From: a phage
Reading direction: 5' to 3' (one strand)
Sequence record: PZ445440.1
DNA length: 64,000 nucleotides
Of this stretch, positions 9,471 to 40,823 are shown piece after piece. The notes below the pieces were generated by a model, which saw only the letters and a program-made list of their open reading frames with translations, was not told where the DNA came from and searched no databases. Each line of letters opens with the position of its first letter. The first letter of the stretch is position 1. The translations under genes were made by a program, and so were the position numbers.

Positions 9471-11158
9471 TATGAAACAGTCATTACAGTAAATCGTCCA
9501 ACTTTGCTCATCTGAAGATGTTGTCCATAAGCTTGTGGGTCATGGTCTCTGTGACTAATTATAAACACGTTTGCATTGGTTAGAGAGTTAAGAATTGTTG
9601 AAATAGCTTTAATACCTTCAGAATCAGTCGCGGAATCCATGACTTCGTCCATAATTAATGTATTGATTCTAACACCAGAAACCTTTTCAGCAATATCTCG
9701 CCATGTAAACAACAACGCGATATCGATACGTGCTTTTTCACCTTGACTAAATGAAGCATAACTGAACTCTTCACGACCACGTGATTTTATAGATTCATTG
9801 AATTCTTCGTCAATAGAAAACACGTAATCGGCTTCCATGATTTTAAGATAATGGTTAATCTGCTTATTGAACAAAGGCACGTATTTTTTAATGATAGCAC
9901 CTTTAATACCAGAATCTTTTAACATATCTGTGATAATACCACGGTGGTATTTTTCAAGAACGATGTCTGATTTTGTTTTAATGATTTTATCAAGTTCTTT
10001 TTGAAGCAAAGCTATCTCATCGGCATGGTCGATAAATTCCGCCGAGGCTTGTTCTATTGCAGCTTTAACTTTCTTAGCTTTATCAATAGTGGCAATCATT
10101 GCTTGTTTCTTGGTACGAATATCAGATGCAAGGTCCTGTTTAGTCTTAACATTAGCTCTGTATTCGTCCACTAGGACACTCAGATTATCTCTGTGACATG
10201 TAAGTTGCTCGAATGAGTGATTACATTCGTGAAGCTTATCGGTAATCTTAGAGACAATAGGATCACCCTGGTGCAACTGTGATGCGCAAGTAGGACACGT
10301 ACCGCCATCATGATACATCTTAATAACTTTGTTATATGAGTCGATTTTAGATTTAATCAAGAATGCTTCTTGTCCTATCTTGTTGAATGCCTCAGTAGGG
10401 TCTTCATCAAGAACGATATTAAGTAGTCGCTCATTAGCTTCTTCGATTTCTGCTTTTAATGAACGAGCTTCTTTGGCTAGGTCGTCATACATATTCTGTA
10501 GACGCGCTACATTATCGCCAGATAATTTCTTTTGACGTTCGATATTCTCGTTATAAATCTTAATTTGTTGGATAACACCATCTTTCTTGGCATCGAGAAC
10601 TTGCCCTTGGGAATTAAGTTCTCGAACTTGAGACTTATTGATTTTATCCATTTCAGCGAGTGTGCCAACTTCTAAAAGGTCTTCGACAAGTTTTCTACGA
10701 GCAGGGGTGCTAAGAGCCATGAAAGGGGTATACCCTGCCGTCCCAAGCACAACGATTTGTTTAAAAGACGCGTATGACATTCCGATGCTACGTTCAAATT
10801 CTTCTTGGAAGTCACGACTGCTGGCAGATTCATCGAGACGAACACCGTCAACGGAGATTTCGAAAATATTGGGCTTTTGGCCACGTCTAATGAAGTATTT
10901 TTTATCATCGAATTCCATCCAAAGCTCAACTAAGAGCTCTTTCTTGTTCGTGCTATTAATGATTTGTCCTTTCTTAACATCACGAAATGGTTTACCGAAA
11001 AGTCCGAAAGTAATGGCTTCTAACATCGTAGATTTACCACCGCCATTTTTACCAGTGATTAATGTCTTTTGGACTTTATCTAATTGGATATCAATAGGAT
11101 TCCCACCTACCGACATGATGTTTTGATAACGAACACGATTTAATTTAAATGATTTCAT
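9470..11158 (-). CDS. 46: recombination endonuclease subunit gp46 (Rad50/SbcC-like ATPase)
   Basis: 562 aa, Walker A GKNGGGKST, long coiled coil, C-terminal ATPase half. Confidence 0.9.
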   Translation of the reverse strand: MKSFKLNRVRYQNIMSVGGNPIDIQLDKVQKTLITGKNGGGKSTMLEAITFGLFGKPFRDVKKGQIINSTNKKELLVELWMEFDDKKYFIRRGQKPNIFEISVDGVRLDESASSRDFQEEFERSIGMSYASFKQIVVLGTAGYTPFMALSTPARRKLVEDLLEVGTLAEMDKINKSQVRELNSQGQVLDAKKDGVIQQIKIYNENIERQKKLSGDNVARLQNMYDDLAKEARSLKAEIEEANERLLNIVLDEDPTEAFNKIGQEAFLIKSKIDSYNKVIKMYHDGGTCPTCASQLHQGDPIVSKITDKLHECNHSFEQLTCHRDNLSVLVDEYRANVKTKQDLASDIRTKKQAMIATIDKAKKVKAAIEQASAEFIDHADEIALLQKELDKIIKTKSDIVLEKYHRGIITDMLKDSGIKGAIIKKYVPLFNKQINHYLKIMEADYVFSIDEEFNESIKSRGREEFSYASFSQGEKARIDIALLFTWRDIAEKVSGVRINTLIMDEVMDSATDSEGIKAISTILNSLTNANVFIISHRDHDPQAYGQHLQMSKVGRFTVMTVS

Positions 11159-21149: not shown

Positions 21150-21506
21150 TTAACCCCGGAGTTTATTGAGCTCTTCATAATCAATCCAGGATTCTAGCCC
21201 TGATGGCAGGTCACATTCAATGTTCCACAGAAGCTCTTCAATGGCTTGCAGGCGATTATATTCTTCAACGGTAATGGTAACCATTGGTGCAACCGGTTCT
21301 GCCTTTTTAACCATCATATCGTTCATCAGGACGTAAAGGTCATCACGAACGACAGTGTCGTTCCATCCCCATGATTTGGCTTCGTAAGCTAATGATGAAG
21401 GGAGCACATTTAAAACTTCAATAATAGTTGGAGCATCAGGACCAAGTTCATTGGCACAAACTTCGTATACATCTTGGAAATCTTTAAGATTTAATGAATA
21501 TGTCAT
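21150..21506 (-). CDS. hypothetical protein
   Basis: track ORF. Confidence 0.5.
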   Translation of the reverse strand: MTYSLNLKDFQDVYEVCANELGPDAPTIIEVLNVLPSSLAYEAKSWGWNDTVVRDDLYVLMNDMMVKKAEPVAPMVTITVEEYNRLQAIEELLWNIECDLPSGLESWIDYEELNKLRG

Positions 21507-21524
21507 TTAAAATTTTCTCGCAGG

Positions 21525-21821
21525 TTATTGTTCTACCCATGAACAAGAGACTTCAAAATCAGGACCACCGTATTCCCAGTGATATTCACCAACAGGAATC
21601 CAGTCACCGTGCTCGTTTTCTTCATAGTCCTCAGGCTCAAGGCCAACGAATCGCCATTGGACACCGATGATTCGATTACCCATCATTACTCGAAATTCGC
21701 CCCATGGATTATCGATAGCATACTGAATATCGTTCTTGGCACGAGAGCACATTTCTTGATATAATAAAGCTTCTAATTCACCCTGGTCATAAGGGCCAGG
21801 GAAAGTTAAATCAATACTCAT
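21525..21821 (-). CDS. hypothetical protein
   Basis: track ORF. Confidence 0.5.
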   Translation of the reverse strand: MSIDLTFPGPYDQGELEALLYQEMCSRAKNDIQYAIDNPWGEFRVMMGNRIIGVQWRFVGLEPEDYEENEHGDWIPVGEYHWEYGGPDFEVSCSWVEQ

Positions 21822-22081
21822 TTAAAATATTCTCGTAGTTGGTCAAATCCACCAATGTGACTTCCATCAGGAGCAAACACTTGAGGCATAGTCAATCCGA
21901 CTTGTGATTCACGTCCAAGCTTAACCAGAAGCTCAGCAATTTTCTCATCATCAAAAACACCTTTTTCTGGCATAACATTAATGAATTCGAACGGCTGTTT
22001 CTTAACAGTCAGCAATCGTTTCGCATTATCACAATAAATGCATTTATGAATAGTAGAGTCATACCCGTACACTTTAAACAT
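21818..22081 (-). CDS. nrdC: thioredoxin NrdC
   Basis: MFKVYGYDSTIHKCIYCDNAKRLL...GGFDQLREYFK matches T4 NrdC. Confidence 0.9.
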   Translation of the reverse strand: MFKVYGYDSTIHKCIYCDNAKRLLTVKKQPFEFINVMPEKGVFDDEKIAELLVKLGRESQVGLTMPQVFAPDGSHIGGFDQLREYFK

Positions 22082-22487
22082 TATTTTTCCTTTCATCGAT
22101 TAAATATGCAATGCCAAATACAATACATGTAATAAAACCTGTGATACAGATAGAAACCAACAACACCGTACCAAAGAACCAAATCAAGTTATCTTTAGTA
22201 GTTTGTTTGATATCCATCTCACGAATTTCTATAGCTATCGTATCACCTTTATTCAGAAGCGTATAAAACGACGGTGATACACGCCTGTCAAAAACTCGTC
22301 CTTGTTCATCTTTATAAACTGCAATAAATTCTAATTTAGAATATTTTCCTGTAGATTGGCCTGAGATTAATTCCACTACCTCCACAGGAATTACTTTAGT
22401 TTCCATGTAAGTATTCTGGCTGTTCCAAATGAATGGAATGATGGCAAAAACTAAAGCTGCAATAAAACAACGAAGGCTATATCTCAT
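22074..22487 (-). CDS. membrane protein (N- and C-terminal TM segments)
   Basis: track ORF. Confidence 0.5.
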   Translation of the reverse strand: MRYSLRCFIAALVFAIIPFIWNSQNTYMETKVIPVEVVELISGQSTGKYSKLEFIAVYKDEQGRVFDRRVSPSFYTLLNKGDTIAIEIREMDIKQTTKDNLIWFFGTVLLVSICITGFITCIVFGIAYLIDERKNNV

Positions 22488-22792
22488 TATAATGTTCTCT
22501 CAAATTTGTGGAAGCATTTACGGCATTTCAATTTCAAGTTATCAGTGGTCCAGTTAACCAGTTGGACTTGGATAGTTCCACATTCCGGACATGGATGTTT
22601 TGCTGCCGATTTGGCAGCATTTTCACGTCGTTCAACCATTTTCATGATTTCGTTCCATGCCGGAGGAACGAACTCTTCTTCACTATGAATTTTATCTCGT
22701 TGAACAAATTCAATCTTTGAACTATCGTCAATAAACTTAACCAAGCGGTGATTAGTGTTCATATCAATATCTTCTAAAAGACGTAGTTTCAT
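22487..22792 (-). CDS. zinc-ribbon protein
   Basis: CPECG...CRKC. Confidence 0.5.
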   Translation of the reverse strand: MKLRLLEDIDMNTNHRLVKFIDDSSKIEFVQRDKIHSEEEFVPPAWNEIMKMVERRENAAKSAAKHPCPECGTIQVQLVNWTTDNLKLKCRKCFHKFERTL

Positions 22793-23742
22793 TATAACAC
22801 CTCAATGGCATTTCGTAAACCATCCGCTTTAGCATTCAGAGCTTTTAACGATTTAGTTTGTTCTGCAATCTGGGCTTCGACTTCTTTCAGACGAGATTTG
22901 AGATATTCGCGTTCTTCTCTTAAGTTATCAACTTTTTCTGCTTTAGGCTCTTTAATAGACTTAGGTTTATATGTATTAGGGTTCTTCAACTTAATTTGAA
23001 TGCGAGAACTGAATAACATCGAACCGTTATCTTCGGTTTCACTGTGCATTTCTACCACATCCATGATTCTTAACATCATGCGAAGTTTATAAGACAGCGA
23101 ACGAACGGTTTTATTGTGCTTCTTAATTTCTTCAGCTTTCATGGTGCCGAGATTACGTGAGTAGTAATAAGGAACCTGGATATCAATTGATAATGATGCG
23201 TTACCATTACCAGTTGGTTTGAATACTGCAGTAACCCAATCTTTAACATGAACTTTATTTGTACGATCATCGCCGCCTGTGAATAATTTACAAGAATGTT
23301 TAAAAAGCATATTCACTTGGTTATTGAATTCACAAGCAAATTTATCAGCAAATTTAGTTTCAGGAATGGTAGTTAACCATTCAGCCAAATGAGTCTTTTT
23401 AACATCATTAACAATAGTGAATTCAACCAAATCGGTTTTAGTTGTCACAGATTTAATAAAGCTCGGCTTCATAAAGTTTTTAATGTTATCGCGAGCTACA
23501 GTAGAAGATAATAAACGAGAACGTTTGAACCATTGAAGCAACGTCCCTAACGAATGAGAATACGCATTTTGAGTATCTTTACAGATATGATTTTCTTGGC
23601 CTATGTATGTACCAAAATCGCGAAGAATACCACTTACTACATCTCGGTGTGGAACATCAAATCCTAGTGCACCAGAAGCACGTTGGGCATGAACGTTAGC
23701 GATAAGACCTGCAAAGTATTCAATGTAATGTGAACGTGTCAT
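22792..23742 (-). CDS. hypothetical protein, 316 aa, C-terminal coiled coil
   Basis: track ORF; preceded by promoter cassette 23770-23799. Confidence 0.55.
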   Translation of the reverse strand: MTRSHYIEYFAGLIANVHAQRASGALGFDVPHRDVVSGILRDFGTYIGQENHICKDTQNAYSHSLGTLLQWFKRSRLLSSTVARDNIKNFMKPSFIKSVTTKTDLVEFTIVNDVKKTHLAEWLTTIPETKFADKFACEFNNQVNMLFKHSCKLFTGGDDRTNKVHVKDWVTAVFKPTGNGNASLSIDIQVPYYYSRNLGTMKAEEIKKHNKTVRSLSYKLRMMLRIMDVVEMHSETEDNGSMLFSSRIQIKLKNPNTYKPKSIKEPKAEKVDNLREEREYLKSRLKEVEAQIAEQTKSLKALNAKADGLRNAIEVL

Positions 23743-23769
23743 AATATTTTCCTCTCGTTAAGATAGATT

Positions 23770-23799
23770 CATTATACTCCAACCATCCTTGGTTGTAAA
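23770..23799 (-). promoter_or_regulatory. early promoter GTTTAC-N18-TATAAT with palindrome AACCAAGGATGGTT in the spacer
   Basis: read from sequence; near-identical copy at 24783-24811. Confidence 0.5.
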
Positions 23800-23804
23800 C
23801 TATT

Positions 23805-24764
23805 TTATGATTTTAATGCATTCATTGCGTTAAAAAGTTTAGAATACTGCAACTGGAGATTCGTTACAACACTTTGAGCATCACGAAGCTTAGCTTGTGC
23901 TTTGTCAAGTTCAACAGACAGTTGGTCTACAGTAGCCTTGATTTGGTTGTAATGATAATCTTCGGCTGGAAGAAGGTCATTAGAAACATTTAGTTTTACT
24001 GCAGACAGTTTGCACACATTTGGTAAACCTTTAAACATTGATTTACCTGAAGTAGAATAAGCACTTAGGACTTCAGCCTGTTCAATTGGGGTCCCAGTAA
24101 GCGATGCTTCGAACGTTGCATTTTCCTTTTTAAGATTTTGATAGTATTCAGAGTCTTTGTGCCACCATGGCGCAGGAACCTTTTTACCAATAGATACACG
24201 AGCCTGGATAGCGATATGGCCCTTATTCTTGATAGGGTCGATAATATTAAGCTCACGAGAATAAATTGCTTTAATCTCATGGATATTATCGCCTAACACT
24301 TCTAGCGCTTGGTGGAATACACGAGCAACGTTATCATTCTTAGGTTTATACGTAAGAGTGAACTCGTTCTCACTGATAACCATGATTTCTAACTTATCGT
24401 AAGTGTACTTAAGATGCTTCATGTTAACCGCTTGAGGACGAATACGAGAAGCAATGGCCATCAGATTGTTAAGGTTATTCCGGAACTGCTTAGCGAAATA
24501 TTGTCCTTCACCACCAATACAAAAATTACGAAGTTTCTGTTTGGCTAATAAACGGCTGAACTCACCATTTTTAATGAACTCTTTAACGGGTGTGTTAGTA
24601 ACGCATTCAAATTGAGTAAACTTACGAGAATTAATCCCATAATACGAACAGATTTCCTCAATCTCTTCAGGAGTCTTTACAGGCATACGGATAGGATTAG
24701 GTCCTGGAGTATATGCGTTCGAGGTAAATTCTTTGATAAGTTCTTTACGTGTAATAAAAGCCAT
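23805..24764 (-). CDS. hypothetical protein, 319 aa, C-terminal coiled coil
   Basis: track ORF. Confidence 0.55.
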   Translation of the reverse strand: MAFITRKELIKEFTSNAYTPGPNPIRMPVKTPEEIEEICSYYGINSRKFTQFECVTNTPVKEFIKNGEFSRLLAKQKLRNFCIGGEGQYFAKQFRNNLNNLMAIASRIRPQAVNMKHLKYTYDKLEIMVISENEFTLTYKPKNDNVARVFHQALEVLGDNIHEIKAIYSRELNIIDPIKNKGHIAIQARVSIGKKVPAPWWHKDSEYYQNLKKENATFEASLTGTPIEQAEVLSAYSTSGKSMFKGLPNVCKLSAVKLNVSNDLLPAEDYHYNQIKATVDQLSVELDKAQAKLRDAQSVVTNLQLQYSKLFNAMNALKS

Positions 24765-24782
24765 TTTATATTCCTCATGTTG

Positions 24783-24811
24783 AAAAATTTATTATACTCC
24801 AACCATCCTTG
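24783..24811 (-). promoter_or_regulatory. early-type promoter (TGTACA -35-like, TATAAT) with spacer palindrome AACCAAGGATGGTT
   Basis: read from sequence. Confidence 0.45.
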
Positions 24812-24819
24812 GTTGTACA

Positions 24820-25656
24820 TCATTCCTTAAGAAGTTTTACTACCTGAATAAGATTAGCTCGTTCTGTTTTATTTTTACCGTTTAAGCCTGCTAATCGTGA
24901 GATTTCATCGTCAGTCTGTTGAATAGTTACATTAAGTTCGTTAATCAAAGCTTCAAAGTATTTGATTTGCTCAGCATGTTTTGATTCAAATTTCTGAACC
25001 GGAATAACGTCTTGGTTTAGTTCATCAATAAGGTCTTTAAGAGCATCTTCTTGGTTGATATCATATTCAACTTCTTTTATTTCTTCAACGAGCTCGTCTT
25101 TATATCTAACGTCTTTTAGTCCTGGTGCTGGTCCTGAAATCTCTTCTTTAAGAGTACAAACATATCCAATACGGTATCCAATGCCGGCTCGCTTGATATC
25201 AACTTCGTCGATAAATCCACAATGTTTAAGCCCGGAGCCGATTAGGTCAAAATATCCTTGACGTCGTCCTTCAAACGTTACATGAACTACTAAGACAGTT
25301 TTACCTGCAACCTTTTGAAGCTCACATTTATAAAAGTCAGTTGAACCTGAATAACGTGGATGAGTTTTAAAGTTCATCTGACGATCTAGGCCCATTTGTA
25401 AACGCGCTGTTACGGCCAGAAAACGTGTTTGGTTCTCGTTAAGATGAGCAACAATCCATTTCAAAGGCATTTTACATTGGTCACGACAGAACAAATCAAC
25501 ATATCCAAGATTACGAAGGATATTGTTAGAGTTAATCATCGACAGAACGTTAAGTTTATTCAGCGCGCTGAAGATTCCATCAGCCATTGATTTTCCGTAA
25601 CCTTTACACGCTTTAATAAGTGCTCGCGGCAGATTAGTATAGATTTCAGACGGCAT
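24820..25656 (-). CDS. hypothetical protein, 278 aa, C-terminal coiled coil
   Basis: track ORF. Confidence 0.55.
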   Translation of the reverse strand: MPSEIYTNLPRALIKACKGYGKSMADGIFSALNKLNVLSMINSNNILRNLGYVDLFCRDQCKMPLKWIVAHLNENQTRFLAVTARLQMGLDRQMNFKTHPRYSGSTDFYKCELQKVAGKTVLVVHVTFEGRRQGYFDLIGSGLKHCGFIDEVDIKRAGIGYRIGYVCTLKEEISGPAPGLKDVRYKDELVEEIKEVEYDINQEDALKDLIDELNQDVIPVQKFESKHAEQIKYFEALINELNVTIQQTDDEISRLAGLNGKNKTERANLIQVVKLLKE

Positions 25657-25853
25657 ATGAAAATCAAATTTACTCTAACCAGTAATTGATGAACTTGGAT
25701 AGCAATTTGTTCATAATTAAGTGCTCTGCGATCATTATGGTCTTTAAACCACACTTTAATCTGTGAAGCACATAAACCGTTAATTTCATGTTTTACCGCA
25801 TCAGATGTAATGCTCATAACTATTTCCTCAGATTGAATTGGAACTCAAAACCA

Positions 25854-25880
25854 TTATAACCCGTCCTTGGGTAAAGCGTT
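25854..25880 (-). promoter_or_regulatory. middle-type promoter: MotA-box-like ACGCTTTAC, 13-nt spacer, TATAAT
   Basis: read from sequence. Confidence 0.4.
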
Positions 25881-26407
25881 TATGCGTGAACCGTCTTTAA
25901 ACGTTCTTCAAATTTCCGAAGAGTACTAATACGTTCTGCTTTCTGTTTTGTATAGTTTGCAATACGTTCTGAAGTGAGAGCGTATCGTTCGTTTACTGTT
26001 TCTTTCATGAAGTCAGTGATTTCACGAGAAGCTTTAATTTCATCAAACTTATCGAGTACTGCCTGATCTTCAGCAATTAAATTTTCGTACATCTCGATAT
26101 CTTTCTTGATGAAGTCGATATCTTCCTGGGTTACTTTGGATAAACGAGATGCTTTATCCTTTTTGTATTGCTCGTTAGTTTCACGAGACCAGAATAATGT
26201 ACGGTTTTTGTTGGTGTTTTTGTAGACTTCCACAATTCCAACTGAATCGATGATAACAATCCAATTCCAGCGAGATTTGAAAATCTGACCTCCGTCCACG
26301 GTAATCTCGTTACCATAAGCAACATCATTAAAGAACTTGCTTTGTGCTTCAGATTTAAATTTACCGTCGTTATAATTTACCAGGTTGAAAATATCTTTAG
26401 CGTTCAT
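25880..26407 (-). CDS. hypothetical protein
   Basis: track ORF. Confidence 0.55.
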   Translation of the reverse strand: MNAKDIFNLVNYNDGKFKSEAQSKFFNDVAYGNEITVDGGQIFKSRWNWIVIIDSVGIVEVYKNTNKNRTLFWSRETNEQYKKDKASRLSKVTQEDIDFIKKDIEMYENLIAEDQAVLDKFDEIKASREITDFMKETVNERYALTSERIANYTKQKAERISTLRKFEERLKTVHA

Positions 26408-26426
26408 GTTTTACCTCCAGTAGTTG

Positions 26427-26463
26427 ATAGGTCTATAATAACATAACCATAGACCTTGTAAAC
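26427..26463 (-). promoter_or_regulatory. early promoter GTTTAC/TTATTAT with inverted repeat ATAGGTCTAT/ATAGACCT around -10
   Basis: read from sequence. Confidence 0.5.
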
Positions 26464-26465
26464 AA

Positions 26466-26753
26466 CTAAAAGAAACTTTTTTCGGTATTTTTTCCACTGA
26501 ACCAAACCGACTTCGGGATTTTTTGTAATTTTTCAGATTTAAGTTTCTCTTCCTGTTCTTTCTTATATACACCCTTGTCGTACTGGAGCATCTCTATGGC
26601 ATTCTTTTGCAAACGATCTAAGGTAATTAAGGCTTTAGTTTTTCCTTTCAAGGAAGAGTCCTGGCGAACCTCCTCACTATATTGCATCGTAGAACTAACC
26701 ATACGATGAGCATACAGTTCGACTGCGGCTTTAATTTTTTGCATAAAATCCAT
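26466..26753 (-). CDS. hypothetical protein
   Basis: track ORF. Confidence 0.45.
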   Translation of the reverse strand: MDFMQKIKAAVELYAHRMVSSTMQYSEEVRQDSSLKGKTKALITLDRLQKNAIEMLQYDKGVYKKEQEEKLKSEKLQKIPKSVWFSGKNTEKSFF

Positions 26754-26891
26754 AACATATCCTCTTTGATTTGTACATCATTATTTTTAAATATTTCTAT
26801 GCCCTCAGTAGGTTCCTGGTGTCCTTCTTTGAGGTAAGCCATATGATTATTCATCTTTATGGCTTTTGTTACCTCAGAACTTCCTATAAGC

Positions 26892-27872
26892 TTATTTCAG
26901 TAAAGTTACTTCAGAGATTTCCTCCCAACCATCTTTATCAGTTGAAATAAAATCTGCTACATAAAGAGCCGTACGTAATGATACATTGCGAAGACGAGAT
27001 ACGTTAGCCTTCATCCAAGATAATGCTTTATACGTTTCTGCATCAGTCAGACCACGTTTCTGCATCATGTCAGTAGATAATATTACATCTTCAACTCGAA
27101 CCATAATCTCTTCATTAGAGTGTACTCCAAGGTCAAGATACACTGAACGAGATACTAAAGCTTGAAGGTGTGGAGCAAGTTTAGAACCGCGTTCTAACTC
27201 TTTATCGATATCAACGTTTGTAATGAAAACGATAGTACCTTCAAACTCAAATTCTTTATCGATACCCTTATCATCAAGATAAGATGATGCAGTGCTCCAA
27301 CAAACTTTGCGTTTATCACCGGTATCTAATGCGGCTTTAAGAAGGTTCAAGATGTCCATATCTGAGAATACGTCAACGTCGTCGATTAAGAGAACGCTGT
27401 CTGCATCACGGTTGAGCCAAAGTTGTTCGTAAAGGCCAATACCAGAGATTTTACCATTAATACTTTTGTATTTGATGAAACCATTATCATTAGCATTATT
27501 AAGTGCTTTATCCAGAGAATACGTCTTACCAATACCTGCTGCACCTGAAATAATGAGTGAACGAATTTTGCCATCGATAATGCCATTCGTCATCATGTTC
27601 ATTACTTTAAAGCGTTTGTTGATACGAGTTTTCATATCTTCAGTGCTTTCAATAACTGCAACTGGTGACGTCTCAACTCCTTCCATTACGATGTCTGATT
27701 TGAAGACCCATACTCCACGTTCAGAGCCATCAATCATAACGAAAATTTTACCATCACCTAAGTGGGAACATTCAGGATTAAGCTTTGCCGGGAACCATGT
27801 CTTTGTGGCAACATAAGAACCAGAGATTTCGTTATTACGATAGATACCTTTTTTGATTTGAACGTTGAACAT
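26892..27872 (-). CDS. AAA+/P-loop ATPase of unknown function
   Basis: Walker A SGAAGIGKT, Walker B VLLIDDVD, IVFITN; start at ATG preceded by GGAGAA. Confidence 0.65.
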   Translation of the reverse strand: MFNVQIKKGIYRNNEISGSYVATKTWFPAKLNPECSHLGDGKIFVMIDGSERGVWVFKSDIVMEGVETSPVAVIESTEDMKTRINKRFKVMNMMTNGIIDGKIRSLIISGAAGIGKTYSLDKALNNANDNGFIKYKSINGKISGIGLYEQLWLNRDADSVLLIDDVDVFSDMDILNLLKAALDTGDKRKVCWSTASSYLDDKGIDKEFEFEGTIVFITNVDIDKELERGSKLAPHLQALVSRSVYLDLGVHSNEEIMVRVEDVILSTDMMQKRGLTDAETYKALSWMKANVSRLRNVSLRTALYVADFISTDKDGWEEISEVTLLK

Positions 27873-27903
27873 TTTATTCTCCAAATTTACTCATTTCGTT
27901 TCG

Positions 27904-27939
27904 ATAGGTCTATAATAACATATCCTAAAAGCATGTACA
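27904..27939 (-). promoter_or_regulatory. early-type promoter (TGTACA, TTATTAT) with GATAGGTCTA element
   Basis: read from sequence. Confidence 0.4.
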
Positions 27940-27968
27940 CTACTTTTTAAAAATATTTTGACCCCCTA

Positions 27969-27986
27969 AAGGGCCCGAAGGCCCTT
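27969..27986 (-). terminator. hairpin AAGGGCC-TTCG-GGCCCTT downstream of 27988 gene
   Basis: read from sequence; U-tract not immediately adjacent. Confidence 0.35.
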
Positions 27987-27987
27987 A

Positions 27988-28977
27988 TCATTTATAGTAC
28001 GAATTGTGGTTTTCTAAGTAGACTTGTTCAAGGAAGTCATCCCAGAAACTCATATCTACTTTTTGTTGCATACCATTCTTAGCAGCTTGTTCTGCTGCAT
28101 GTTCAACTTGGTCAACGATATCTTCTAGGAATTCCTGTATGGTTTTAAACGTATGTTTACCAAGCTTAACATCGAGAATAAATGGAGCATCCTGAAGCGG
28201 GTAAACCAGGTCGCCGGTTTTGTAAATTTCTAGGAGCTGAAGTCCACCACGGCATGCATGACTCAATGCTTTCCAATCAATACCTTCATTGGCTTCTGCC
28301 TTACGAGCACGTTCACCGTAGTTCTCTTCAAGTTTAACCAGGATGGCATTGAACTCTTTATTGGTTAACGTGTCTTGGAATTTACGGTCCAACAGACTAT
28401 AGAATGTTTGCTTACCTGTTTTCTCATTTTCGGTTTCAACCCACGAAGCAAATTCACCTACAGGCAGAACATTCTTCATATGTGATAAACGAATTACTGC
28501 ACCATTATCAAAGTATCGTCCCCATTCATTAGAACGTTTAAGGGCTTGACGAAGAACAGCCAGTCGAGAACCCTTGACACCGTATTTAGAAGCTTGCTTA
28601 CGGACATACCCTAAATAAGATTTCATGTTAGTGGTATAGAAACGAGACCTGTTATCTTGAATATACTTCCATACATCAGGCAAATCAGATTTAACTACTA
28701 GACTTTGTGGAGTGTGAAGCATATCTAATGCGACGGTTTCACCATCAGCAGCTAGTTTAAAGAAATATTTGAGACTATACAACTCATGGTCCACGTCGTC
28801 TTTTGTGTTCTTAGAAGATGTGTTATTCGTGTTCTTGCTCATGTGTTCTTTAACGTTACCGGTCAAGATATCACGAGCATGAGGGACATAAATTTCTTTA
28901 AAATCGACGTCAGATTCAGGAGTAGACGTTCCATAAAGGTGGCTACCAAAGTAAGCCTTAACAATCGTTTTCATCAT
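27988..28977 (-). CDS. polymerase-beta-superfamily nucleotidyltransferase-like protein
   Basis: FGSHLYGTSTPESDVDF matches hG[GS]x9-13Dh[DE]h nucleotidyltransferase-fold signature (MNT/OAS/cGAS class); C-terminal helical region. Confidence 0.55.
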   Translation of the reverse strand: MMKTIVKAYFGSHLYGTSTPESDVDFKEIYVPHARDILTGNVKEHMSKNTNNTSSKNTKDDVDHELYSLKYFFKLAADGETVALDMLHTPQSLVVKSDLPDVWKYIQDNRSRFYTTNMKSYLGYVRKQASKYGVKGSRLAVLRQALKRSNEWGRYFDNGAVIRLSHMKNVLPVGEFASWVETENEKTGKQTFYSLLDRKFQDTLTNKEFNAILVKLEENYGERARKAEANEGIDWKALSHACRGGLQLLEIYKTGDLVYPLQDAPFILDVKLGKHTFKTIQEFLEDIVDQVEHAAEQAAKNGMQQKVDMSFWDDFLEQVYLENHNSYYK

Positions 28978-29447
28978 TTAGCCTTATATTCAAGAGTAGG
29001 ACAGACTTTTTCTTTACGAGCTTTAAGGTATCCACCTATTAATGATTTCTTACGTTCAATAGGCTCAAGTCCATTTTTAATTCGTTCTTGGTTTTGCGCA
29101 ATGAGCTCAATTTCTTTATAATATTTTCTGTCGTTATATTTGTCTAACAGCCAAGACGGACCAATTACTAACCCGGTAGCAATAAAAGCCATGACTGCTA
29201 CAATTAAAATGCCTACACCAATTGAGGCTGGAACTAATGTCCATAGACTGCTAAAAACAAAGAATTTAGTTAAAATTTCCTGGCCAATGATTGTGACTGC
29301 TGCTAAAATCGCAAATCCAATAATTGAAGCAGCCAATACCGGGATTAACGTTTTCCAAAAATAAGCACACAACGTTTTCGGACGATTCCATGTACTATTG
29401 AACGCGGCATAAATTTTAAAGTGCCAAGAGTTTTCATTGATAATCAT
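28974..29447 (-). CDS. membrane protein (3-4 TM)
   Basis: track ORF. Confidence 0.55.
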   Translation of the reverse strand: MIINENSWHFKIYAAFNSTWNRPKTLCAYFWKTLIPVLAASIIGFAILAAVTIIGQEILTKFFVFSSLWTLVPASIGVGILIVAVMAFIATGLVIGPSWLLDKYNDRKYYKEIELIAQNQERIKNGLEPIERKKSLIGGYLKARKEKVCPTLEYKAK

Positions 29448-29456
29448 AATAATTCC

Positions 29457-29987
29457 TTATTTCAAAGTTGGGATAATGGAATCGAGATAAGCTTTAAGAG
29501 CTACAGCTTCGTCTTTGGTAAATGTAGTAACATGTGAACGTAAATCATCATTTTGGCGAATAGTTACTACATCACCATCTTCATAAGAATTCATGACAGC
29601 CAAAGTCGTGGTATAGTTTGGAGCTATTGGATTAATAATGTAAGCACCACGACTGATACCCCATTTAAGTTTAGCCTTTTCAGGTGGTTCGGATTCCAAG
29701 AATTCTTTCACCTTAGCAACGAATGTTTTCCAGTTATCGATAGAAAGGCATTTGTCTTCAGTTTCGATATTAGCACCGTTATAAAGCCCATGATAAAAAC
29801 GAGCCTGAAGGTCTCCACCAATATTAATTGCCGATGCATGACCAGGCGGATTGAGTTTCAAAATCTCGTCTAGTTCCATAGGACAAATAGTAATACCATC
29901 ATCTTCCTGAGTCAGAACGTATACATTACCACGTTTTTCGATAGTCAAATCACCGAACAGTTCGGTTGTTTCAATTACAGTTTTCAT
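29457..29987 (-). CDS. hypothetical protein
   Basis: track ORF trimmed to ATG (MKTVIETTELFGD...). Confidence 0.55.
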   Translation of the reverse strand: MKTVIETTELFGDLTIEKRGNVYVLTQEDDGITICPMELDEILKLNPPGHASAINIGGDLQARFYHGLYNGANIETEDKCLSIDNWKTFVAKVKEFLESEPPEKAKLKWGISRGAYIINPIAPNYTTTLAVMNSYEDGDVVTIRQNDDLRSHVTTFTKDEAVALKAYLDSIIPTLK

Positions 29988-29988
29988 A

Positions 29989-30168
29989 TTATTCACCAAT
30001 TAAAGTTTCAACAAAATTCACCAAATCATTCTGACGAGCATCAACTTGTTTTTCATAAAAGTCTCCACAGTCATTTACTGCATGATAAGCTACATCATTT
30101 AAATCTGAATCAGCTTCACGTAAGTCATGGATAAGGTCCATCAATTTATTAGCTTGTTCACGGGTCAT
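29989..30168 (-). CDS. hypothetical small acidic protein (59 aa)
   Basis: hand translation MTREQANKLMDLIHDLREADSDLNDVAYHAVNDCGDFYEKQVDARQNDLVNFVETLIGE, codon-by-codon checked. Confidence 0.4.
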   Translation of the reverse strand: MTREQANKLMDLIHDLREADSDLNDVAYHAVNDCGDFYEKQVDARQNDLVNFVETLIGE

Positions 30169-30275
30169 TTTACCATACTCGTTTCAATAAGATTCACTAT
30201 GCCGTTTACCATGTTATAAGTAAACATCGGATAATTGTATTGTATCACAACGTATACGATAAGCAAAAGTTTCAT
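30165..30275 (-). CDS. hypothetical small hydrophobic protein (36 aa from MKLLLIVY)
   Basis: hand translation; ATGA coupling to downstream ORF; SD GGAGAA. Confidence 0.3.
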   Translation of the reverse strand: MKLLLIVYVVIQYNYPMFTYNMVNGIVNLIETSMVK

Positions 30276-30294
30276 TTTGTTCTCCATTTGTTTT

Positions 30295-30333
30295 GGTAGG
30301 ACTACTATAACATAGTCCTACCAAGATGTAAAC
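30295..30333 (-). promoter_or_regulatory. early promoter GTTTAC-N17-TTATAGT with perfect 10-bp inverted repeat GGTAGGACTA/TAGTCCTACC around -10
   Basis: read from sequence. Confidence 0.5.
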
Positions 30334-30566
30334 TACCGATTGTGTTTTAAATGTTGATAAAGTTCTTCAACTTGTTTAGGGTCCAAAACAATTAGGTCAT
30401 TTTCTTGGCGAAGATAAATCCATCCCTTATCCCCAGGACCATTTTTACAAAACATCACCACCATATCATCATCTTCAGCGCTTTCAGGTAAAAGTTCAAG
30501 TACGCCGTCTTCAGATTTTTCAGTATAATCGTAAAGCATAATATCCTCACATAATCTCGTTAACAT
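30333..30566 (-). CDS. hypothetical acidic protein
   Basis: track ORF. Confidence 0.5.
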   Translation of the reverse strand: MLTRLCEDIMLYDYTEKSEDGVLELLPESAEDDDMVVMFCKNGPGDKGWIYLRQENDLIVLDPKQVEELYQHLKHNR

Positions 30567-30726
30567 ACATTTGCAATTCGGTGTGGGCGTCAGCCATCTT
30601 TTTCATAGCTCTGTTAATGTCGATGTCTCCATCTTCGCAACCATGAGCATTTTCCCAATCAGATACCGCATTAGCGTACTCTTCAATCAAAAACATTAAC
30701 TTAGAAATTTTTTCTTTACGTGACAT
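30547..30726 (-). CDS. hypothetical protein
   Basis: track ORF trimmed to ATG downstream of promoter 30731-30782. Confidence 0.5.
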   Translation of the reverse strand: MSRKEKISKLMFLIEEYANAVSDWENAHGCEDGDIDINRAMKKMADAHTELQMYVNEIM

Positions 30727-30730
30727 AACG

Positions 30731-30782
30731 TTCTCCTCTAGTAAGTAAGGTTTACTATAACACAACCTGAGGAGAAGTAAAC
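30731..30782 (-). promoter_or_regulatory. early promoter GTTTAC/TTATAGT; spacer arm TTCTCCTC complementary to downstream arm GAGGAGAA that is the SD of the 30726 gene
   Basis: read from sequence. Confidence 0.5.
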
Positions 30783-30793
30783 TGATAGATGCC

Positions 30794-30820
30794 AAAAAGC
30801 CCCGACCTTTCGGAAGGGGC
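30794..30820 (-). terminator. rho-independent terminator (GCCCC...GGGGC hairpin + UUUUU) after rI
   Basis: read from sequence; near-identical architecture to 47475-47501. Confidence 0.6.
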
Positions 30821-30827
30821 TAGTAAA

Positions 30828-31130
30828 TTAGATAGATGTAGGCTCTAATTTTATTTTCATGAACTCGGCAAATTGTCTGGCAGTTTTTATGCCTTGTTCA
30901 TGACATTCAAATGCATCATCACAGGGGCTATTTTTGTAATGCTTTGCCATATACTTATAGAATTTTTCAGAATTCTCGACATTTTGAATTTCAAACAAAG
31001 TATATACGTTTTTAATCCCTGATTCCATAAAGTTATCAAAGTATGGGTCAACATATGCAGTGCCAACAATAGGAGTCGTTGCTGCAAAAAACCCCAGCAT
31101 CGCCACAATGACTATCGCTCTTAAGGCCAT
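30828..31130 (-). CDS. rI: lysis-inhibition antiholin RI (signal-anchored periplasmic)
   Basis: MALRAIVIVAMLGFFA...DPYFDNFMESGIKNVYTLFE...CDDAFEC resembles T4 RI. Confidence 0.8.
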   Translation of the reverse strand: MALRAIVIVAMLGFFAATTPIVGTAYVDPYFDNFMESGIKNVYTLFEIQNVENSEKFYKYMAKHYKNSPCDDAFECHEQGIKTARQFAEFMKIKLEPTSI

Positions 31131-31973: not shown

Positions 31974-32156
31974 TTATAGTGAATTCACGTAGTCAATGAG
32001 TTCTTGTTCTTTCCTGTCAAATGATTCCAACAATGCTTGATATTCTTCATCTGTTAAAGGAGCATATTCATCATACGCATTGGTGGCCGCTTGCTCATCC
32101 AATAGGTCGTGGATAAGTTCGAACAGTTTAGTTTTCTCTTCTTTAGTCAATTTCAT
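31974..32156 (-). CDS. hypothetical acidic protein
   Basis: track ORF. Confidence 0.5.
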   Translation of the reverse strand: MKLTKEEKTKLFELIHDLLDEQAATNAYDEYAPLTDEEYQALLESFDRKEQELIDYVNSL

Positions 32157-32647
32157 TTAGGTTCCCAATCAACAATCACAATTTCTAGTTTAGTGGAATA
32201 CGTATCTAAAATCTCTTCGATGACATCCCAGTTTCCACCACCAATACCTGCACCAATTCTTGGCATATAAATTACAGGCTTTGTTATCTTATTCTTTCCG
32301 AATTCATTTAATTCTATTATACAATTCATTAAAGCATAGTACTCAAAATTAGGTCCAGGCTCAAACTGTGTATAAAGATTAAAGCAATAAGCTTTATGGG
32401 TCTTAAAATATTTTTCATAAACCGAATAAGTCCCGAGTTTAGACTCGTCTCCGAATTCGGTTTGAAGTTTATCGGCTTCCAGAATTTTTGGATAAGCCTT
32501 TGCTAATTGTCCTGCTACACCGGCACCCATTGTATGAAAACAATTACACCCATGAGCAATATTATTACCTTTAGAAAACAGGGCGACAATATCGCCCTTG
32601 ATATAGTTTTTAATCACTTGCTGCAAGTCCTCTAGTATAAGAGTCAA
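32153..32647 (-). CDS. macrodomain protein, TARG1/OARD1/DarG-like
   Basis: KGDIVALFSKGNNIAHGCNCFHTMGAGVAGQ and YMPRIGAGIGGGNW parallel human OARD1 GDLF..SLAHCISEDCRMGAGIA and SMPRIGCGLDRLQW from memory. Confidence 0.6.
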   Translation of the reverse strand: MTLILEDLQQVIKNYIKGDIVALFSKGNNIAHGCNCFHTMGAGVAGQLAKAYPKILEADKLQTEFGDESKLGTYSVYEKYFKTHKAYCFNLYTQFEPGPNFEYYALMNCIIELNEFGKNKITKPVIYMPRIGAGIGGGNWDVIEEILDTYSTKLEIVIVDWEPK

Positions 32648-33970: not shown

Positions 33971-34020
33971 TCTCCTCTAGTTGACAAGTCTATAGTAACA
34001 CAACTAGAGGAGAAGTAAAC
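33971..34020 (-). promoter_or_regulatory. early promoter GTTTAC/TTACTAT with 13-bp inverted repeat TCTCCTCTAGTTG/CAACTAGAGGAGA; downstream arm contains regB SD
   Basis: read from sequence. Confidence 0.55.
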
Positions 34021-37781: not shown

Positions 37782-37835
37782 TTCCTCCAAGTAGTTGATG
37801 AATGTATAGTATCAAAACCCTTGGAGGAAGTAAAC
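37782..37835 (-). promoter_or_regulatory. early promoter GTTTAC/TACTAT; spacer arm TTCCTCCAAG complementary to downstream arm CTTGGAGGAA that contains denV SD
   Basis: read from sequence. Confidence 0.5.
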
Positions 37836-40803: not shown

Positions 40804-40823
40804 AATATTCTCCTCATGTTTTA

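Follow-up and report, generated by a model that had tools for sequence, protein, structure and literature searches.

The promoter-early stem-loop (PeSL) consists of an AT-rich stretch, a strong early promoter, a stem-loop, and the Shine-Dalgarno (SD) sequence and ATG of the next gene (PMC2839356, PMC4122927). As reported by Arbiol (2010) and Comeau (2014), recombination between neighbouring PeSLs deletes or inserts open reading frames (ORFs) and yields mini-circles (PMC2839356, PMC4122927), and in the RB49/phi1 mini-circle experiments the crossovers fell between the -10 element and the ATG (PMC2839356). The T4/PST elements have the promoter consensus TTTACW-N17-TAYWAT with AGNA-loop-TCNT stems, and the PST PeSLs were marked at ~43-51 kb, near the position of the T4 nrdC block at 48-57 kb (PMC4122927). 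Here, we analysed a 64,000-nt stretch of phage DNA (record PZ445440.1, hereafter the window) and, within it, the 8.7-kb interval from nrdC to rI (22074-30800). The interval is 100% identical to that of Escherichia phage ChristianSchoenbein (Bas46, MZ501056), a Mosigvirus of the RB69/PhAPEC2 group; the window belongs to this phage, hereafter Bas46. In all likelihood the interval is the Mosigvirus version of the already described T-even nrdC-to-rI hyperplastic accessory-gene region with PeSL-type recombination cassettes.

The Bas46 cassettes share with PeSLs the intergenic hyperplastic location, the constituent elements, the promoter consensus, and the AGNA...TCNT stems. Moreover, in both systems the gene-sized insertions and deletions of close relatives cross over inside the cassette, between the -10 and the SD. 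The published PeSLs, those of RB49/phi1, T4/PST, and KVP40/nt-1, come with mini-circles, whereas the Mosigvirus cassettes are known from sequence alone; on that level they fit the PeSL definition in every feature open to testing. The exchange model proposed for this locus is not new, since it is the published hyperplastic-region (HPR)/PeSL model (PMC2839356, PMC4122927).

GenBank annotates 16 coding sequences between nrdC (21818-22081) and rI (30828-31130), and every gene in 22074-30800 lies on the minus strand. The GC content is flat at 0.34-0.41, and therefore the interval is not a compositional island. At least 80% of it was found in 150 records at 90-100% identity. An Rfam scan detected no RNA family in the interval, its sole hits being two tRNAs at 48.2 kb. 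The promoter cassettes and hairpins of the interval are as follows.

23771-23799, minus strand: class A early-promoter cassette upstream of nrdC.3, with TTTACA, the spacer hairpin CAACCA-AGGA-TGGTTG, and TATAAT
24791-24819, minus strand: class A early-promoter cassette upstream of the nrdC.5-like gene, with the same 27-nt core as at 23771-23797
25853-25878, minus strand: middle-promoter-like cassette, with a MotA-box-like CGCTTTA, N13, TATAAT, and the same AAGGA-loop hairpin
26435-26462, minus strand: class B early-promoter cassette upstream of nrdC.8, with the palindrome AGGTCTAT...ATAGACCT around the -10
27912-27939, minus strand: class B early-promoter cassette upstream of nrdC.10, the site of a polymorphism of zero, one, or two ORFs
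27960-27986, minus strand: intrinsic-terminator-like hairpin GGGCCTTCGGGCCC followed by a T-rich stretch, right after nrdC.11
30293-30332, minus strand: early-promoter cassette, with TTTACA and the 12-bp-arm palindrome TTGGTAGGACTA...TAGTCCTACCAA (30293-30324) bracketing the -10 (TATAGT)
30754-30822, minus strand: early promoter (30754-30781) and rI-distal terminator-like hairpin (30800-30822), the hairpin preceding the promoter

The early sites all fit TTTACW-N16-18-TAYWRT, the cassette type being TTTACA-N17-TATAAT. The 24 nt upstream of the sites have a mean AT content of 0.72, compared with 0.63 (standard deviation 0.09) in random 24-mers, and the SD and ATG of the next gene follow 26-39 nt past the -10. 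The two class A cassettes, in the intergenic stretches 23743-23804 and 24765-24819, carry the same 27-mer TACAACCAAGGATGGTTGGAGTATAAT at 23771-23797 and 24791-24817, for which shuffled sequences give an expectation of 0. Similarly, the two class B cassettes, in the intergenic stretches 26408-26465 and 27885-27987, carry the same 20-mer TATGTTATTATAGACCTATC at 26426-26445 and 27903-27922 (0.03 expected). The sequence-only reading had placed near-identical promoter/palindrome cassettes at 23770, 24783, 26427, 27904, and 30295. All five are present at these positions, and the likeness is close within the two pairs and extends to one relative, but it does not run across all five. Furthermore, six early-type sites and one middle-type site serve the 16 ORFs, the remaining ORFs abutting or overlapping one another; the notion that each gene lies behind its own promoter cassette thus holds for only about 7 of the 16. 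There is no recognisable promoter before nrdC.9.

At 25818-25879, a degenerate early promoter was considered and set aside in favour of the MotA-type middle promoter, whose spacing from box to -10 fits and which is kept in T4 and AnYang, at the orthologous nrdC.8/nrdC.7 junction of T4 and the nrdC.8/nrdC.6 junction of AnYang. Relatives carry a compensated version, GGGGACCTTCGGGTCCC, of the hairpin at 27960-27986, and relatives of the 30293 palindrome lie elsewhere in the window, at 40820, 42115, and 49796. A further 13-bp interrupted hairpin (GAGGTAA..GCCATA / TATGGC..TTACCTC) without a U tract follows the nrdC.10 stop at ~26833-26876.

The recombinational role of the cassettes was assessed from gene-sized differences among close relatives. 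In the Mosigvirus WFL6982, nrdC.6 is followed directly by nrdC.3, and a module of exactly 1,020 bp containing the nrdC.5-like gene is missing. The junction, ...aatgaTGTACAACCAAGGATGGTTGGAGTATAATGAATTTATCTTAACGAGAGG..., has a left half from the 24791 cassette and a right half from the 23771 cassette; therefore, the crossover took place inside the identical 27-bp core. A 141-nt probe finds this hybrid junction intact in 21 records, and the nrdC.5-like gene is present in 133, which together make up all 154 records with the region. Because T4 and Dhakavirus have nrdC.5 at this place, the absence of the gene is most simply a deletion, and the gene-less state would then have arisen by loss of the 1,020-bp gene-plus-cassette module.

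The second polymorphic site is the nrdC.11/nrdC.10 junction, which holds no ORF in Bas46, one in mobillu, and two in S143_2, with crossovers inside TATAGACCTATC. The mobillu ORF encodes 88 amino acids (aa) with a hydrophobic N-terminus (MKKLVIGLFAVMMAFSVGA...) that looks signal-peptide-like by eye. The second ORF of S143_2, of a type found in ~52 of ~160 records, sits between two class B cassettes. The single cassette of mobillu is the corresponding hybrid, and the class B cassette of Bas46 at this junction is also a hybrid, with a different crossover point. Collectively, these gene-sized insertions and deletions with hybrid-cassette junctions support the idea of modular gene exchange, with the cassettes as real points of exchange.

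Several observations weigh against assigning the plasticity of the interval to PeSL-type cassettes. The 21 gene-less records could stem from a single event. In KAW3E185, a 2.7-kb deletion lies between two copies of the 10-nt ATTTTACCAT, one of them within nrdC.10. In phage a20, a homing endonuclease is inserted between nrdC.11 and the gene for the membrane protein, exactly at the T4 mobD position, and identity drops in the DNA flanking it. Cassettes also occur throughout the window, at 0.69/kb inside the interval and 0.27/kb outside (~2.5-fold), and the 40-48 kb stretch is equally dense. In addition, the Bas46 palindromes lie within the spacer or around the -10, whereas the published T4/PST figure legend puts them just upstream of the promoter, and most of them lack a U tract, only two canonical terminators being present (27960-27986 and 30800-30822). 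Of the 21 minus-strand sites fitting TTTACW-N16-18-TAYWRT in the window, six are in the interval; cassettes specific to the interval were rejected, with the same repeat families at 15, 34-38, and 40-51 kb.

Some of these points suit another explanation, in which the likeness of the cassettes reflects constraint on strong early promoters and the plasticity comes from generic microhomology and homing endonucleases, with the cassettes no better substrates than other short repeats. The KAW3E185 deletion, at a 10-nt microhomology in coding sequence, resembles the deletions at 2-10-bp microhomologies in experimental T4 evolution (PMC9391042); a homing endonuclease stands at the nrdC.11 boundary in both a20 and T4 (mobD); and promoter-like sites alone are not enriched over shuffled sequence in a simple consensus scan (35 compared with 33.5 expected). 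In contrast, at two independent polymorphic sites the junctions lie exactly in cassette cores and the hybrids retain an intact promoter before the next gene, no gene in the interval is flanked by direct repeats longer than the identical 27-bp ones, and the crossovers of the RB49/phi1 mini-circle experiments fell between the -10 and the ATG of such cassettes (PMC2839356). We consider the microhomology explanation improbable and retain exchange at PeSL-type cassettes.

The exchange model for Bas46 can be outlined as follows. The interval would consist of early-expressed accessory genes in about seven short transcription units, each opening with a T4-type sigma-70 early promoter or, in one unit, a MotA-type middle promoter, both of presumed activity, and the spacer or -10 region of each promoter lies within a short palindrome. 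The direct repeats of the cassette cores, 12-27 bp long and placed between genes, may serve as crossover points for the active homologous recombination of the phage, presumably by the UvsX/UvsY pathway. Such a crossover would delete, insert, or swap a gene together with one cassette and leave a functional hybrid promoter before the next gene. As for the palindromes, the candidate roles are attenuation of read-through transcription or making translation dependent on the local promoter.

The palindromes are more frequent than expected. A perfect stem of at least 8 bp occurs at 9 of the 21 sites, compared with 2.8% of random windows of the same length. The dyad centres cluster 2-5 nt upstream of the -10 centre, with two smaller groups in the spacer and over the SD. 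The class A type (stem-AGGA-stem in the spacer), found only in T4, AnYang, and Bas46 in the phages compared, precedes nrdC.3, nrdC.4, nrdC.5, and nrdC.6/nrdC.7, and its arms covary around the conserved AGGA loop (CAACCA/TGGTTG, CCACA/TGTGG, CATCC/GGATG, TACCA/TGGTA, and ACCC/GGGT). Similarly, the nrdC.8 promoters of T4, AnYang, and Bas46 each retain a palindrome with different arms. Given this excess, the covariation of the arms, and the retention of palindromes whose arms differ, dyad symmetry as such appears to be selected. A terminator role is unlikely for most of the palindromes and was set aside for want of a U tract, which also casts doubt on the terminator half of the PeSL definition in Bas46; this feature, together with the one cassette of MotA middle-promoter type, sets Bas46 apart from the published elements.

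A possible but doubtful alternative is that the palindromes act mainly as insulators at the RNA level, sequestering the SD or attenuating transcription in read-through RNA, so that a gene would be expressed only from its own promoter. We folded 50 early-promoter cassettes from this window, T4, AnYang, CGG4-1, KP179, and EnA02. At 11 of the 50, the SD core is predicted to be almost fully paired in read-through RNA and ~0.5-0.65 unpaired in its own transcript, and at these 11 sites the occlusion exceeds that of 95% or more of the controls with shuffled upstream sequence (~2.5 such sites expected by chance); over all 50 sites, a paired Wilcoxon test gives p = 0.013. In the interval, the clearest predicted sites are 30754-30781 and 24791-24819. 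In the former, the spacer TTCTCCTC is complementary to the downstream SD GAGGAGAA, and the SD is predicted to be unpaired at 0.61 in its own transcript and 0.00 in read-through RNA. The nrdC.8 palindromes kept with different arms would suit insulation as well, and a promoter placed in a hairpin that controls translation is established for T4 late promoters (PMC3014915). On the other side, a coarser first test, averaging over the stretch from SD to AUG, gave equal values for native and shuffled upstream sequence, about three-quarters of the sites have no SD occlusion, most stems bracket the -10, away from the SD, and the evidence consists of folding predictions. Insulation would also be compatible with a recombination role. 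A general anti-SD function was rejected, the signal being confined to a subset of sites, and insulation is retained as a partial rival to the exchange-point role.

Spacers with an anti-SD sequence just after the -35, such as TTCTCCTC, occur at 33992-34019, 37806-37834, and 30754-30781 of the window, at 9915-9943 of the compared T4 locus sequence (L001), and at 1174, 10349, and 16999 of that of AnYang (L007). They pair over 8-14 bp with the downstream SD, which is predicted to be free only in transcripts starting there. Translation of the T4 genes e, soc, 49, and I-TevI is controlled by a late promoter that lies within a hairpin (PMC3014915), and in a subset of the Bas46 cassettes the hairpin arm pairing with the SD likewise sits upstream of the transcription start. 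In contrast to those late promoters, the Bas46 promoters are early, and the effect is predicted by folding at about one-quarter of the sites.

To compare the genes with those of T4, we searched the interval proteins against the T4 nrdC-tk locus using BLASTP. The genes are listed below.

22074-22487, minus strand: 137-aa protein, nrdC.7 homologue moved beside nrdC (BLASTP 41% identity, E = 1.5e-25; phrog_2547)
22487-22792, minus strand: 101-aa nrdC.2 homologue, CxxC...CxxC zinc-ribbon-like (49% identity to T4 nrdC.2)
22792-23742, minus strand: 316-aa nrdC.3 homologue (55.5% identity to T4 nrdC.3, E = 2e-117; also a weak nrdC.4 match)
23805-24764, minus strand: 319-aa NrdC.5-family (DUF7235) gene (25% identity to T4 nrdC.5, E = 2e-10; PF23882, E = 4e-123)
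24820-25817, minus strand: nrdC.6 homologue, split into 278 and 85 aa (32% identity to T4 nrdC.6; phrog_2257)
25880-26407, minus strand: 175-aa nrdC.8 homologue (83% identity to T4 nrdC.8)
26466-26753, minus strand: 95-aa nrdC.9 homologue, DUF7203 (PF23833, E = 1e-22; 35% identity to T4 nrdC.9)
26892-27872, minus strand: 330-aa nrdC.10 homologue, P-loop/AAA-like NTPase, a scaffold gene (77.5% identity to T4 nrdC.10)
27988-28977, minus strand: 329-aa nrdC.11 homologue, RlaP-family nucleotidyltransferase (PF10127; 78% identity to T4 nrdC.11; phrog_388)
28974-29447, minus strand: 157-aa protein with transmembrane-like hydrophobic segments (phrog_944, named membrane protein in PHROG)
29457-29987, minus strand: 180-aa mobD.1 homologue with T4_y05I_N and T4_y05I_C (PF24449, E = 2e-36; PF24448, E = 1e-13; 43% identity)
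29989-30275, minus strand: two small ORFs, a 59-aa DUF7438 protein and a mobD.2 homologue (GenBank starts)
30333-30726, minus strand: 68-aa DUF7189 ORF and a second 59-aa DUF7438 ORF (Pfam; GenBank coordinates)

The sequence-only reading had described about 15 ORFs without recognisable T4 counterparts. In contrast, 13 of 15 genes have T4 homologues among nrdC.2-nrdC.11 or mobD.1-mobD.3, at 25-83% aa identity, and the order is colinear with T4 except for the relocated nrdC.7 homologue. The region corresponds to the dispensable nrdC-tk region of T4, lying at the same place between nrdC and rI/tk, on the same strand and in the same gene order. Two genes only, those for the 157-aa membrane protein and the DUF7189 protein, have no match in the T4 nrdC-tk locus, and T4 nrdC.1, nrdC.4, mobD, mobD.4, mobD.5, and rI.-1 have no match among the interval ORFs. 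Bas46 differs from the T4 region, then, in the nrdC.7 homologue moved next to nrdC, the frameshifted nrdC.6, and these two extra genes.

These results bear on the view of the interval as an island whose genes are unrelated to one another, foreign to T4, and horizontally acquired one by one as self-contained gene-plus-promoter modules. Consistent with that view are the two genes without a T4 homologue at a syntenic locus, the small ORFs gained and lost at cassettes, and the low identity of nrdC.5, nrdC.6, and nrdC.9 (25-35%, compared with 77-83% for nrdC.8, nrdC.10, and nrdC.11), which could reflect allele replacement from a diverged pool. However, 13 of 15 genes match T4 in order and Dhakavirus likewise, the 150 records noted above match 80% or more of the interval at 90-100% identity, a promoter stands before only about 7 of the 16 ORFs, nrdC.3 and nrdC.4 are paralogous, and a C-terminal module is common to the ~300-aa proteins. 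A foreign island is therefore highly improbable, and the interval is better read as the Mosigvirus form of the T-even accessory region.

The broad features that had been noticed in the proteins, namely an AAA+ ATPase, a nucleotidyltransferase-like protein, a zinc-ribbon protein, and membrane proteins, are broadly real, the first as a P-loop/AAA-like protein and the third as a zinc-ribbon-like one. The nrdC.10 homologue has a Walker A motif (GAAGIGKT) and a Walker B motif (VLLIDD), with Pfam scores for AAA_22, AAA_16, and AAA_14 all under the gathering cut-off, and 1,312 phage records contain a homologue, among them records of Vibrio, Acinetobacter, and Aeromonas phages and of large-genome (320-366 kb) phages. 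The nrdC.11 homologue passes the PF10127 gathering score (49.9 bits, cut-off 23; E = 4.6e-13). Both assignments were already made by Nolan et al. 2006 (PMC1524935). The nrdC.2 homologue, kept in five Tevenvirinae genera, has CPEC at residue 68 and CRKC at residue 90, and the 137-aa nrdC.7 homologue has two hydrophobic, transmembrane-like segments. The gene for the 157-aa membrane protein occupies the spot where T4 and phage a20 have the mobD homing endonuclease, and the protein has homologues at 31-36% identity in Dhaka-, Gelderland-, Jiaoda-, and Karamvirus phages. No solved structures were found for nrdC.10, nrdC.11, mobD.1, or the NrdC.5 profile.

In nrdC.6, positions 1-47 and 55-303 of phrog_2257 match two separate window ORFs. 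By alignment, the split is due to a 2-bp AG insertion at 25675-25676, and the gene is intact (331 aa) in mobillu and S143_2; the insertion reflects either a pseudogene or an error in the Bas46 sequence. The nrdC.6 of the T4 reference (NC_000866) is also frameshifted near its 3' end, at 7997-8100 of L001, and its conserved C-terminal coil, ...SKAKSEREKLIKIVDLLKS*, lies in another frame, within the annotated nrdC.6/nrdC.5 'intergenic' region; with both genes frameshifted, nrdC.6 would therefore have been disrupted independently in two phages. Around nrdC.8, the block of DNA with 80.7% identity to T4 has its ends (25849 and 26505) in or close to the cassettes on either side.

Among the small ORFs, the mobD.2 homologue is 68% identical to T4 and measures 36 aa with the GenBank start and 40 aa in the ORF list, and small ORFs match T4 mobD.3 and mobD.2a weakly. 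The mechanical ORF list over-extends 30547-30795, 26892-27884, and 30165-30287 upstream to TTG or ATG codons that overlap the genes' own promoters; the real starts are 30726, 27872, and 30275, matching GenBank and having a proper SD. DUF7438 is assigned by Pfam at 29989-30168 and 30547-30726, both in the interval, and a third, DUF7438-like ORF past tk (31974-32156) resembles them in sequence and looks paralogous, with a tblastn match in the T4 tk.1/tk.2 area. One DUF7438 ORF is labelled 'helicase loader' in PHROG, which looks unsupported.

To reveal how far the gene set is conserved, we compared the window proteins with the loci of nine other Straboviridae. An ordered scaffold of nrdC, nrdC.2, nrdC.10, nrdC.11, the 157-aa membrane protein, mobD.2, rI.1, and tk is found in Tequatro-, Dhaka-, Gelderland-, Jiaoda-, and Karamvirus, and in Acinetobacter phage ZZ1 nrdC.10 and nrdC.11 still lie between nrdC and rI. 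In this nine-locus comparison, nrdC.3, nrdC.5, nrdC.6, nrdC.8, nrdC.9, and mobD.1 were detected in Tequatro-, Mosig-, and Dhakavirus only, and the gene set is also colinear in a Dhakavirus. The sequence-only reading had named the same gene order across distant T4-like phages as the finding that would speak against it; the order is kept in Tequatrovirus, Mosigvirus, and Dhakavirus, whereas genera farther away keep the scaffold only. Collectively, gene-sized insertions and deletions among close relatives and genus-restricted interior genes uphold the description of nrdC-to-rI as a plastic accessory region.

Three of the proteins of about 300 aa had been described as unrelated, with C-terminal coiled coils. 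The length and a long C-terminal helix stand, but the proteins are not clearly unrelated. In hhalign, nrdC.3 and nrdC.4 give 96% over 209 columns, a link that survives without the C-terminal 70 aa, and from these profiles the two are paralogues. Weaker links lead to nrdC.5 and nrdC.6: with small profiles, nrdC.4 and nrdC.5 score 87% and nrdC.3 and nrdC.5 score 60%, and with richer profiles the C-terminal coil alone aligns (10%). A local iterative hidden Markov model (HMM) search seeded from equivalently placed proteins of other genera merges the four families and nothing else among 446 ORFs, but only with the C-terminal coil included. Furthermore, the NrdC.5 profile matches a metagenomic protein of 315 aa (P0086; E = 6e-6 against the whole library), whose N-terminal 175 aa are nrdC.3-like (26% identity) and whose C-terminal 76 aa match the NrdC.5 profile. 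This chimera suggests domain shuffling within the ~300-aa group.

AlphaFold2 (AF2) models of these proteins are of low confidence. The nrdC.3 homologue (21-sequence alignment) has a mean predicted local distance difference test (pLDDT) of 52.7 and is confident only at 275-315 of 316 aa, the C-terminal helix, and the NrdC.5-like protein (30 sequences, Mosig and Dhaka types) has 47.5 and is confident only at 267-318 of 319 aa. Models of this quality do not lend themselves to a comparison of folds, and matches to them would carry no meaning. Collectively, the ~300-aa proteins have in common a general architecture and, at the least, a homologous module at the C-terminus; that they form one superfamily is a hypothesis.

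The nrdC.5-like gene links the interval to counter-defence. Its protein matches PF23882 over its full length with 411 bits (cut-off 30), and T4 NrdC.5 with 420.6 bits (E = 5e-126); because both are full-length DUF7235 members, the weak pairwise link between them is solid. Searched against 1.84e9 proteins, a profile of the Mosig and Dhaka types reaches the T4-type representative at E = 2.7e-23, nine cluster representatives matching in all, and the RB69 copy is already annotated as NrdC.5. Two word-indexed single-sequence protein searches returned only relatives of at least 54% identity, and a mixed alignment added the Dhakavirus type.

As reported, T4 NrdC.5 restores the infection of cells with Dsr1 (PMC9391042), T6 Gp49.2, from the pin-to-nrdC stretch beside the interval, inhibits OLD (PMC13096335), and the T4 delta-tk2 deletion, from tk to nrdC.2, is viable (PMC3014915). 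The expectation that strain-specific accessory functions are to be found here is therefore reasonable, and T4 NrdC.5 and T6 Gp49.2 already bear it out; with the anti-Dsr1 factor of T4 as a member of one family in the block (NrdC.5/DUF7235), part of the block probably serves counter-defence. Similar to known anti-defence clusters (the T4 dmd-tifA-adfA 'anti-TA island' [TA, toxin-antitoxin], NrdC.5/Dsr1, and Gp49.2/OLD), the interval has small, early, non-essential, and fast-diverging genes. Its DUF7235 family includes the T4 anti-Dsr1 factor, and the homologue of that factor is the very gene that is present or absent among relatives. In contrast to the characterised factors, the Bas46 NrdC.5-like protein is known from its sequence, 25% identical to T4 NrdC.5, and the broadly conserved scaffold genes nrdC.10 and nrdC.11 resemble housekeeping accessories more than arms-race genes.

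A more speculative proposal, which we regard as unlikely, is that nrdC.3, nrdC.4, nrdC.5, nrdC.6, and the equivalently placed Tevenvirinae proteins form one T-even-restricted modular counter-defence family. Its fast-evolving N-terminal domains would have different targets, of which Dsr1 is the only one known, joined to a shared coil ending in ...L..A...LK; the members would be reshuffled at the class A cassettes preceding each of them, with palindromes insulating a subset.

In several close Mosigviruses, the 49.1-49.3 stretch beside the interval (21286-21818, from pin to nrdC) has been replaced or has diverged: alignments end at 21286, 21440, or 21523 and start again at 21803 or 21818. BLAST gave no match between the 118-aa ORF at 21150-21506 and T4 49.2. 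Two genes past tk, the 164-aa ORF at 32153-32647 corresponds to T4 tk.4 in position and size; T4 tk.4 is linked to an A1pp (macro-type) phosphatase domain by the T4 annotation and by Nolan et al. 2006 (PMC1524935), and the ORF could be a further counter-defence candidate.

In conclusion, no new kind of element was found, and the impression of genes foreign to T4 is corrected. The results confirm PeSL-type cassettes as crossover points for accessory-gene gain and loss in another T-even genus, over ~150 Mosigvirus records and thus far more genomes than in the original PeSL papers. To this they add a clean example at the population level, in Mosigvirus, in which an anti-defence gene homologue takes part. 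The cleanest case concerns the homologue of the sole gene in the region with a known anti-defence role and is for this reason of practical use as a target. Presence/absence alleles occur naturally for the cassette-flanked nrdC.5-like module, for nrdC.3 and nrdC.6 next to it, and for the small ORFs between nrdC.11 and nrdC.10, and a correlation of these alleles with host range could be sought in, for example, the BASEL collection.

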